Below are positions 17,916 through 18,300 of a stretch of DNA of 64,000 nucleotides, piece after piece. The notes under the pieces are model-generated. The model saw only the letters and a list, made by a program, of their open reading frames with translations, ran no database searches and was not told where the DNA came from. Source of the stretch: Escherichia coli (GTDB lineage: Bacteria; Pseudomonadota; Gammaproteobacteria; Enterobacterales; Enterobacteriaceae); NCBI RefSeq assembly GCF_001677475.2, contig NZ_CP015229.1; one strand, given 5' to 3'. Both the position numbers and the translations under genes were made by a program. The stretch's first letter is position 1; each line of letters opens with the position of its first letter.

Positions 17916-18101
17916 TTATTCCTTATCTGATTCTTTGGTTTTTTTCCGTTGGCGGCGTTTGATCTCGCCACGCATGGCTGCGCTTATAAACTGCCCTGTA
18001 CTTTCGCCATCTTCTTTCACGTTTTCCATGCCTTCAATAATTTCATGGGCAATACGTGCAGTTACAGATTGTGATTTTGCATTCTTTGGACCTGTTGCCA
18101 T
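17916..18101 (-). CDS. Small putative DNA-binding regulator (ribbon-helix-helix-like)
   Basis: 61 aa from MATGPKNAK with GAGGGG RBS; basic C-terminus; divergent from operator-bearing promoter region. Confidence 0.4.
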   Translation of the reverse strand: MATGPKNAKSQSVTARIAHEIIEGMENVKEDGESTGQFISAAMRGEIKRRQRKKTKESDKE

Positions 18102-18119
18102 GTCTAACCCCTCATGTTT

Positions 18120-18205
18120 TTGGTGTAAGACAATATACACGAAAAAAAACTATTTTAAAGGGTTGACGTGTAAGACACTGTTGTTTTATGTTGTGTCTTA
18201 CACCT
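18120..18205. promoter_or_regulatory. Divergent promoter with three GTGTAAGAC operator-like repeats
   Basis: GTGTAAGAC at approx. 18124, 18168 and inverted GTGTCTTAC at approx. 18193; TTGACG -35-like hexamer overlaps the second copy. Confidence 0.5.
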
Positions 18206-18300
18206 TGAGTGTTCAAGGTTCAGAAACTGCGAAGCCCGTAGGTGCCGCTAACACCCACAGGCTTCTAACCACCAACGATAGTAATAGTATCGAGGCAGCT

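Follow-up and report, generated by a model that had tools for sequence, protein, structure and literature searches.

A YlcI-like small protein and three repeated sites as the most likely on/off switch of a phage-parasitic island in Escherichia coli

Which element keeps the replication operon of a phage-parasitic island off while the island is integrated and quiescent? The question is raised by a 64-kb stretch of Escherichia coli DNA, denoted here as the window, in which three copies of a short repeat separate a minus-strand gene for a 61-residue protein from the plus-strand operon of such an island. The 61-residue protein and its three sites are most likely the on/off switch of the island.

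The island extends from ~14.8 to 30.1 kb (~15.3 kb) and is inserted into the gene for the large terminase of a prophage, with the N-terminal part of the helper terL running from 13689 to ~14730-14882 and the C-terminal part from 30130 to 30855 (PHROG 9 profile positions 169-448 and 449-673, respectively). It carries genes for an integrase, two AlpA-like proteins, a Bro-N protein, the YlcI-like protein, Icd-like proteins, DUF4222, a RepA helicase, SSB and PerC, as well as its own capsid, portal, terS and terL genes (23609-29602, PHROG matches). Owing to these capsid and terminase genes and to its insertion within the helper terL it is classified as a capsid-forming, helper-embedded PICI, and it matches the layout reported by Tommasini et al. 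(PMC10111431) and Alqurainy et al. (10.1101/2022.09.08.507074).

Two further repeat arrays are present in the island. Just past the RepA-helicase gene (21336-21534) at least seven copies of AAAAGTGGGG occur in both orientations and are probably iterons of the island replication origin. At the right end, after the island terL (29682-29838), TTGCGGGTTA is found in three direct copies spaced by 21-22 bp and in three inverted copies ~100 bp beyond these, which are candidates for packaging (cos/terS) sites or integrase arm sites. Within the helper prophage and upstream of its packaging genes, tRNA-Met (CAT) and tRNA-Arg (TCT) are located at 10380-10631, and a minus-strand tRNA-Ser (TGA) at 52540-52627 may mark the prophage end.

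The int gene (14822-16111, plus strand) and the tandem alpA-like genes (16077-16310 and 16344-16652, plus strand) converge on the minus-strand gene of the 61-residue protein, which is always the sole gene of opposite polarity between int/alpA/bro and the replication operon. Each alpA-like gene is followed by a terminator-like hairpin (16334-16353 and 16661-16686), which is suggestive in the light of the antiterminator function of Pseudomonas AlpA (PMC7969949). Three related loci (L009, L048 and L049) contain the Rfam int-alpA RNA (RF02996) in the interval from int to alpA, ~2.3-2.9 kb beyond the repressor gene; in the window this RNA scores below the gathering score.

The intergenic array and its surroundings

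A search of both strands of the 64-kb window retrieves GTGTAAGAC as an exact match only three times, at 18123-18131 and 18168-18176 on the plus strand and at 18195-18203 on the minus strand, all inside 81 bp, which agrees with the two direct copies and one inverted copy reported in a preliminary description of the locus. Any additional matches contain a mismatch and are far off. Each copy extends over 11 nt in the pattern GTG-N5-CAC. The array is placed between the gene of the 61-residue protein (17916-18101) and the plus-strand Icd-like operon, and a scan of 16000-19500 for sigma-70-like consensus elements yields two matches only, both in this intergenic region. The predicted rightward promoter (18163-18192, plus strand) comprises the -35 element TTGACG (18163-18168), an 18-nt spacer and the -10 element TATGTT (18187-18192), and the predicted leftward promoter (18132-18159, minus strand) comprises the -35 element TTTAAA (18159-18154), a 16-nt spacer and the -10 element TATATT (18137-18132).

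Each of the three sites overlaps or abuts core elements of these promoters. O1 (GTGTAAGACAA, 18123-18133) is located just past the leftward -10 element and over the predicted start of the ylcI-like transcript, and is predicted to be an autoregulatory site. O2 (GTGTAAGACAC, 18168-18178) takes up about the first 11 nt of the spacer between the rightward -35 and -10 elements. Its first base is the last base of TTGACG, and the overlap of a -35-like element with one repeat copy, as noticed before, thus amounts to a single shared base. O3 (GTGTCTTACAC, the inverted copy, 18193-18203) directly follows the rightward -10 element and lies over the predicted rightward transcript start. A nonamer occurring at least three times on either strand of the 199-nt intergenic stretch is obtained in 21 of 20,000 dinucleotide-preserving shuffles; the comparative evidence for the sites described below is much stronger than this estimate.

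Just downstream of the gene for the 61-residue protein a hydrophobic ORF of 47 residues is found (17769-17912, minus strand), for which searches against PHROG and NCBIfam gave no match. It is common only to the near-identical locus L001 and absent from the other loci, and because of this lack of conservation it is probably not part of the switch. The leftward transcript likely ends at a terminator-like hairpin with a 12-bp stem and a T run (17469-17496, minus strand).

On the opposite side the rightward transcript is predicted to begin with a structured leader (18203-18292, plus strand) that spans the distance between O3 and the first rightward ORF. It harbors a 5′-terminal hairpin CCTTGA-GTGT-TCAAGG (18203-18218), a GC-rich stem-loop (18231-18265) followed by a conserved UCUAACCAC, and a hairpin CGATA...TATCG (18276-18292) beside the Shine-Dalgarno sequence. 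An RNAalifold consensus of 33 related loci shows compensatory changes in 9 of the 11 predicted pairs, while no Rfam family matches the leader. The first gene of the operon (18301-18504, plus strand, 67 residues) matches the Icd-like family NF033153 of NCBIfam with 71.8 bits, and a second Icd-like ORF (18788-18964, plus strand, start approximate) forms the C-terminal part of the mechanical ORF 18497-18964, residues 107-149 of which match the same family with 51.4 bits; the assignment of the plus-strand genes as Icd-like is thereby confirmed.

Between the two Icd-like ORFs the operon contains a P1/P4-type RNA immunity cassette (18535-18739, plus strand). It is composed of a1/b1-like targets (18535-18584; Rfam c4-a1b1, 42.1 bits, just below the gathering score of 46.7), an isrK-like terminator element (18548-18626; Rfam isrK, 33.7 bits) and the C4 antisense RNA (18652-18739; Rfam C4, 72.3 bits, gathering score 45), all on the plus strand. 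C4 is absent from 20 related loci that carry the three sites, hence the RNA and the protein/operator module are separable layers and a coupling of the triad to the C4 RNA was rejected. An action of the sites at the RNA level was likewise rejected, as O2 lies in the untranscribed spacer and the orientation of O3 flips from locus to locus, even within a specificity class.

Family assignment and predicted fold of the 61-residue protein

The gene on the minus strand (17916-18101 including the stop codon) starts with the ATG at 18101 and not with the upstream GTG of a mechanical ORF of 74 codons. Every homologue begins at the same MATG, from which both the start and the reality of the ORF follow, and the minus-strand ORF of 61 residues proposed earlier is thus borne out. 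The protein contains 13 Lys/Arg and 10 Asp/Glu residues. With 65.3 bits (cut-off 30) it belongs to the NCBIfam family NF041551 (YlcI/YnfO), residues 9-50 covering positions 1-42 of the 42-position model, and its homologues are annotated as YlcI/YnfO family in RefSeq as well. It also matches PHROG 949, a family of no known function.

A Pfam scan of the protein and 40 homologues returned no significant family and no ribbon-helix-helix (RHH) match for the window protein; sub-threshold matches to RHH_1 (E = 0.015) and Arc (E = 0.03) are confined to single members of the alignment. Neither a profile search of PDB sequences with the protein nor a Foldseek comparison of its model with the PDB gave a match. 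The AlphaFold2 model (pLDDT 91.3) depicts an extended segment (residues 1-18) followed by two helices (residues 19-28 and 35-60), i.e. the β1-α1-α2 topology of ~45 residues that is characteristic of RHH proteins. In the model of a tandem fusion, employed as a modelling device, residues 10-18 of both copies are the only strands, and block-mean pLDDT values are 92-97 across the folded regions. The models thus predict the protein to be an RHH DNA binder. A trait specific to this group is the long basic helix 2 with an invariant EIKRRxR motif. In some E. coli PICIs (L055, 4847-5152; L058, 1347-1652) a variant of 101 residues occurs with an insertion of ~40 residues in helix 2, and these variants keep sites with a TAAG core.

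Conserved positions and variable sequences of the sites in related loci

In order to compare the array with its counterparts, one genome per species was scanned, which yielded 49 loci encoding relatives of the 61-residue protein in Xenorhabdus, Yersinia, Pectobacterium, Serratia, Hafnia, Morganella, Citrobacter, Enterobacter and other genera, and twelve E. coli loci were added. Some 55 related loci, spread over more than 15 enterobacterial genera, have triads at the same offsets, and nearly every locus contains its own locus-specific 11-mer three times at fixed distances from the repressor start codon. Among the 50 non-identical loci, the offset from the ATG is +22 for O1 in 47 and +67 for O2 in 46, while O3 is found with at most two mismatches to the O2 of its own locus in 48, at +88 to +103 and in variable orientation. 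The mean mismatch to the O2 of the same locus, out of 11 positions, is 0.64 for O3 and 1.78 for O1. All related loci have TTGA(C/A/G) directly before O2, and nearly all have TATACT on the minus strand, the equivalent of the leftward -10 element, beside O1; the leftward -35 element is poor in most. The rightward spacers are 17-18 nt long in the other loci that were read directly.

The outer GTG and CAC are constant across the loci, whereas the inner five bases vary, and do so jointly within each locus: the N5 cores differ at 0.24-0.55 positions within a locus as opposed to 3.43 between loci that differ in residues 10-17 of the protein. The more alike two loci are in residues 10-17, the more alike are their cores (Mantel r = 0.75, P = 2e-4), and a partial r of 0.53 is retained once the contributions of the N-terminus, the remaining protein and the flanking DNA are removed; conversely, the partial r for flanking DNA is 0.10 once the strand is accounted for. 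The N5 core thus tracks residues 10-17, above all positions 12 and 14 of the strand predicted to read the DNA, which is indirect evidence for repeated subsites read by alternate strand residues as in RHH proteins.

The individual pairings of residues 10-17 with sites are SQSVTARI with GTGTAAGAC, SQMTTVRI with GTGTAT(T/G)TC, SQQLNARF with GTGCGATTC, S(K/R)KLEARV with GTGGCTGAC, SLQ(V/L)SVRL with GTGGTGTTC, SKRFDVRV with GTGTCCGAC, SQ(A/S)LK(A/S)RV with GTGG(G/A)CCAC and SQKLQ(A/T)RA with GTGGA(A/T/G)TCC. Such pairings recur across genera in proteins with differing, host-specific C-terminal tails: SKKLEARV goes together with a GCTGA core in E. coli and Xenorhabdus, as does the near-identical SRKLEARV in Pectobacterium, and SQQLNARF with CGATT in Citrobacter, Pectobacterium, Morganella and Xenorhabdus. 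Cores are also similar where strands are different but agree in residues 12 and 14, namely GA.TC or GAGCA for Lys/Gln, C.ATT for Gln/Asn and TAAG for Ser/Thr at these two positions. If the hydrophobic residues 13, 15 and 17 face the protein core, residues 10, 12, 14 and 16 would face the DNA. Ser10 and Arg16 are invariant, in line with the invariant outer GTG and CAC.

Since the repressor gene and its sites are adjacent and co-inherited, part of this co-variation reflects linkage, a concern that the partial correlations and two natural cassette exchanges reduce without removing it. In the first of these, L002 and L003 encode integrases of 91%, AlpA-like proteins of 95%, Icd-like proteins of 98.5% and RepA proteins of 100% identity, yet their YlcI-like proteins are 71% identical and their sites different (TAAGA versus GGCCA cores), the nucleotide divergence being confined to ~320 bp that comprise the 5′ two-thirds of the ylcI-like gene and the intergenic region. 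The reverse is found for the window and L001, where the YlcI-like proteins are 100% identical and the sites identical despite only 24%, 32% and 60% identity of the integrases, AlpA-like and Icd-like proteins, respectively. According to these two contrasts, the specificity of the sites follows ylcI and no other island gene. Identical specificities within one genome, the avoidance of which is expected for an immunity system, were found in 1 of 12 pairs compared with 2.0 expected (P = 0.38), so that no significant avoidance was detected. One genome with two modules of the same specificity class is that of Xenorhabdus khoisanae (L030 and L031), where O2 of L030 has decayed.

The prototype PICI EcCICFT073 also encodes a YlcI-like protein (NC_004431.1, 1380473-1380652) with the strand SQALKARV, and its sites GTGGGGGACAG, GTGGGCCACAC and GTGGGCCACAC occupy the standard positions. 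A helper-embedded PICI of O157:H7 combines SQKLQARA with GGA(A/T)TCC sites. By blastn the module is detected in at least 583 of 5,426 complete E. coli genomes, and it is present furthermore in P4-like satellites of Xenorhabdus, Yersinia, Pectobacterium and other genera, with triads also at loci that have no Icd-like match in a phmmer screen and lead into a P4-alpha-type primase. A tblastn search of 50,697 deposited phage genomes gave no match, which indicates that the YlcI-like subfamily does not occur in sequenced phages, P4 included. Full-text searches of a library of open-access papers and bioRxiv yielded no description of a function for the YlcI/YnfO family, for DUF3950 or for the sites.

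Proposed mechanism, alternatives and relation to known systems

Taken together, the 61-residue protein is, with a probability of about 0.8, a dimeric RHH repressor that acts on the GTG-N5-CAC sites, silences the rightward operon and regulates its own synthesis. In detail, the two-stranded β-ribbon of the dimer (residues 10-18) would enter the major groove at each 11-bp site, where residues 12 and 14 of the strand would set the N5 core, with Ser10, Arg16 and the outer GTG/CAC kept invariant. With O2 in the -35/-10 spacer and O3 over the start, occupancy would block RNA polymerase at the rightward promoter and thus silence an early and replication operon that comprises the Icd-like genes, the C4 RNA, DUF4222, the RepA helicase, SSB and PerC and subsequently the capsid genes. 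O1 covers the start of the divergent promoter of the repressor itself, by which negative autoregulation would be achieved. From the sequences and models we infer physical binding, repression and autoregulation as well as the transcript starts. The module may exist in many mutually non-cross-reacting 'immunity' specificities that are traded between satellites as a cassette of ~300 bp.

The autoregulated repressor/operator switch envisaged in the preliminary description is thus supported by the predicted RHH fold, the promoter-overlapping sites and the co-variation of strand and core. Its further suggestion of a possible induction switch holds only in so far as the module appears to be part of the control, since such islands are induced by AlpA (PMC6092414) and this one carries the C4 cassette as well. 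Gram-negative PICIs are induced through AlpA, an activator sufficient to induce EcCICFT073, and AlpA overexpression alone has been reported to trigger replication of this island (PMC6092414). As EcCICFT073 carries the module, the repressor cannot be an absolute block, and with AlpA induction and the C4 layer sharing control the module is best read as a maintenance or immunity repressor.

A wider reading is put forward tentatively and appears possible, if rather doubtful. The YlcI-like RHH protein would then supply Gram-negative PICIs and many satellites of the P4 type with the global or immunity repressor that has long been missing, with a code in which residues 12 and 14 versus the 5-bp core generate at least 15 orthogonal, cassette-shuffled specificities. 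Induction would proceed without inactivation of the repressor: transcripts driven by AlpA, and perhaps antiterminated, would come from the int/alpA side, cross the repressor gene in antisense direction and continue into the replication operon. They would thereby bypass the repressed promoter and, in the case of this island, also the C4-dependent terminator. Such AlpA-dependent read-through is a testable speculation that derives from the invariably opposite polarity of the repressor gene at this position.

Other explanations of the locus have to be weighed against the repressor model. Provided that the protein does bind the sites, it might act mainly as an activator or as a bifunctional switch, for instance by being required for rightward transcription or by setting promoter choice as in P22 Mnt/Arc-type circuits. 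This is unlikely, as the placement of O2 within the -35/-10 spacer and of O3 over the start is classically occluding, the rightward spacers of the other loci read directly are of ordinary length, an island that is integrated and quiescent has to keep its replication operon shut, and the gene is opposite in polarity to that operon. It is decidedly unlikely that the sites are the real operators of AlpA, of the Icd-like protein, of the Bro-N 'antirepressor' or of a helper-phage protein while the YlcI-like protein does something else, even though AlpA is the sole experimentally supported regulator of Gram-negative PICIs (PMC6092414) and Icd-like families are labelled 'transcriptional repressor' in PHROGs. 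Both cassette exchanges contradict this view, with different sites next to near-identical AlpA-like, Icd-like and RepA proteins in L002 and L003 and the same sites next to divergent AlpA-like and Icd-like proteins in the window and L001. Many triad loci are also without an Icd-like match in the phmmer screen, and a helper-encoded factor would leave unexplained why the site core is tracked by the variable residues of the adjacent protein.

Very improbable is an RHH antitoxin, perhaps paired with the hydrophobic 47-residue ORF, whose repeats would merely autoregulate a toxin-antitoxin pair. In about 23 of 53 loci no ORF of at least 30 residues starts within 150 nt downstream, the downstream ORFs that exist are unrelated except between near-identical islands, and two of the three sites are situated on the promoter of the opposite operon; with no conserved same-strand downstream partner in the 53 loci, the toxin-antitoxin pair was rejected. 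A chance or non-functional origin of the repeats can draw on the fact that ~0.1% of the shuffles of the A-rich intergenic stretch also contain a triple nonamer, but it is effectively refuted by the position-conserved, sequence-variable triads of the related loci.

The same predicted switch is thus present in the best-studied E. coli PICIs, for which no repressor has been identified, and the hypothesis is directly testable in the existing genetic system of EcCICFT073 (PMC6092414). If the protein is a maintenance repressor, it would account for the silence of the islands and define satellite immunity groups. It would also provide a source of small natural repressor/operator pairs, likely orthogonal and governed by a simple reading code.

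The predicted module resembles the RHH repressors Arc and Mnt of P22, CopG and ω of pSM19035, which are likewise β-α-α proteins of ~50-60 residues, bind short repeated subsites over divergent or adjacent promoters, obtain specificity from alternate residues of the N-terminal strand and are autoregulated, as predicted here. It differs from them in lacking a significant Pfam match to RHH_1 or Arc and in its three 11-bp GTG-N5-CAC sites at fixed offsets. YlcI of the K-12 prophage DLP12 is also encoded by a small, divergently transcribed prophage gene, and YnfO of Qin belongs to the same family. However, YlcI is only ~21% identical to the window protein over 34 residues. The two K-12 genes that gave the family its name belong to lambdoid prophages and diverge from nohD/nohA, the neighbor of ylcI being the small-terminase homologue nohD, whereas the window gene is divergent from the Icd-like replication operon of a satellite; a three-site array was looked for at K-12 ylcI and none was found.

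In the Stl/Rpr systems of Gram-positive PICIs (SaPIs) a small regulatory gene is divergent from the excision, replication and packaging operon and keeps the satellite quiescent, the role predicted here as well. The corresponding divergent arrangement of the repressor gene and the replication/packaging operon is found in the window, L001-L003, L053, L055 and L057-L062. Stl proteins, on the other hand, are helix-turn-helix proteins of much greater size, and their repression is lifted when they bind proteins of the helper phage. There is no homology between them and the window protein, and int and alpA of the window are opposite in polarity to the repressor gene, whereas in the Stl/Rpr-type layout int is located on the repressor side and runs in the same direction (PMC6092414).

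The immunity regions of lambdoid phages (cI/cro with OR/OL) share with the module three operators over back-to-back promoters, many specificities and the exchange of repressor and operators as one cassette between otherwise near-identical elements. The fold predicted here is RHH and not helix-turn-helix, however, and the module has one visible regulator gene without a Cro-like partner and without evidence of SOS cleavage. The antisense-RNA immunity of P1 c4 and P4 CI, finally, is represented in the same operon of the island and also acts downstream of an early satellite promoter, but it is RNA-based and takes effect after initiation. The kind of mechanism proposed, an RHH repressor with repeated operators, is therefore well known, and what makes it notable is the gap that it would fill in satellite biology and its clean, modular specificity code.
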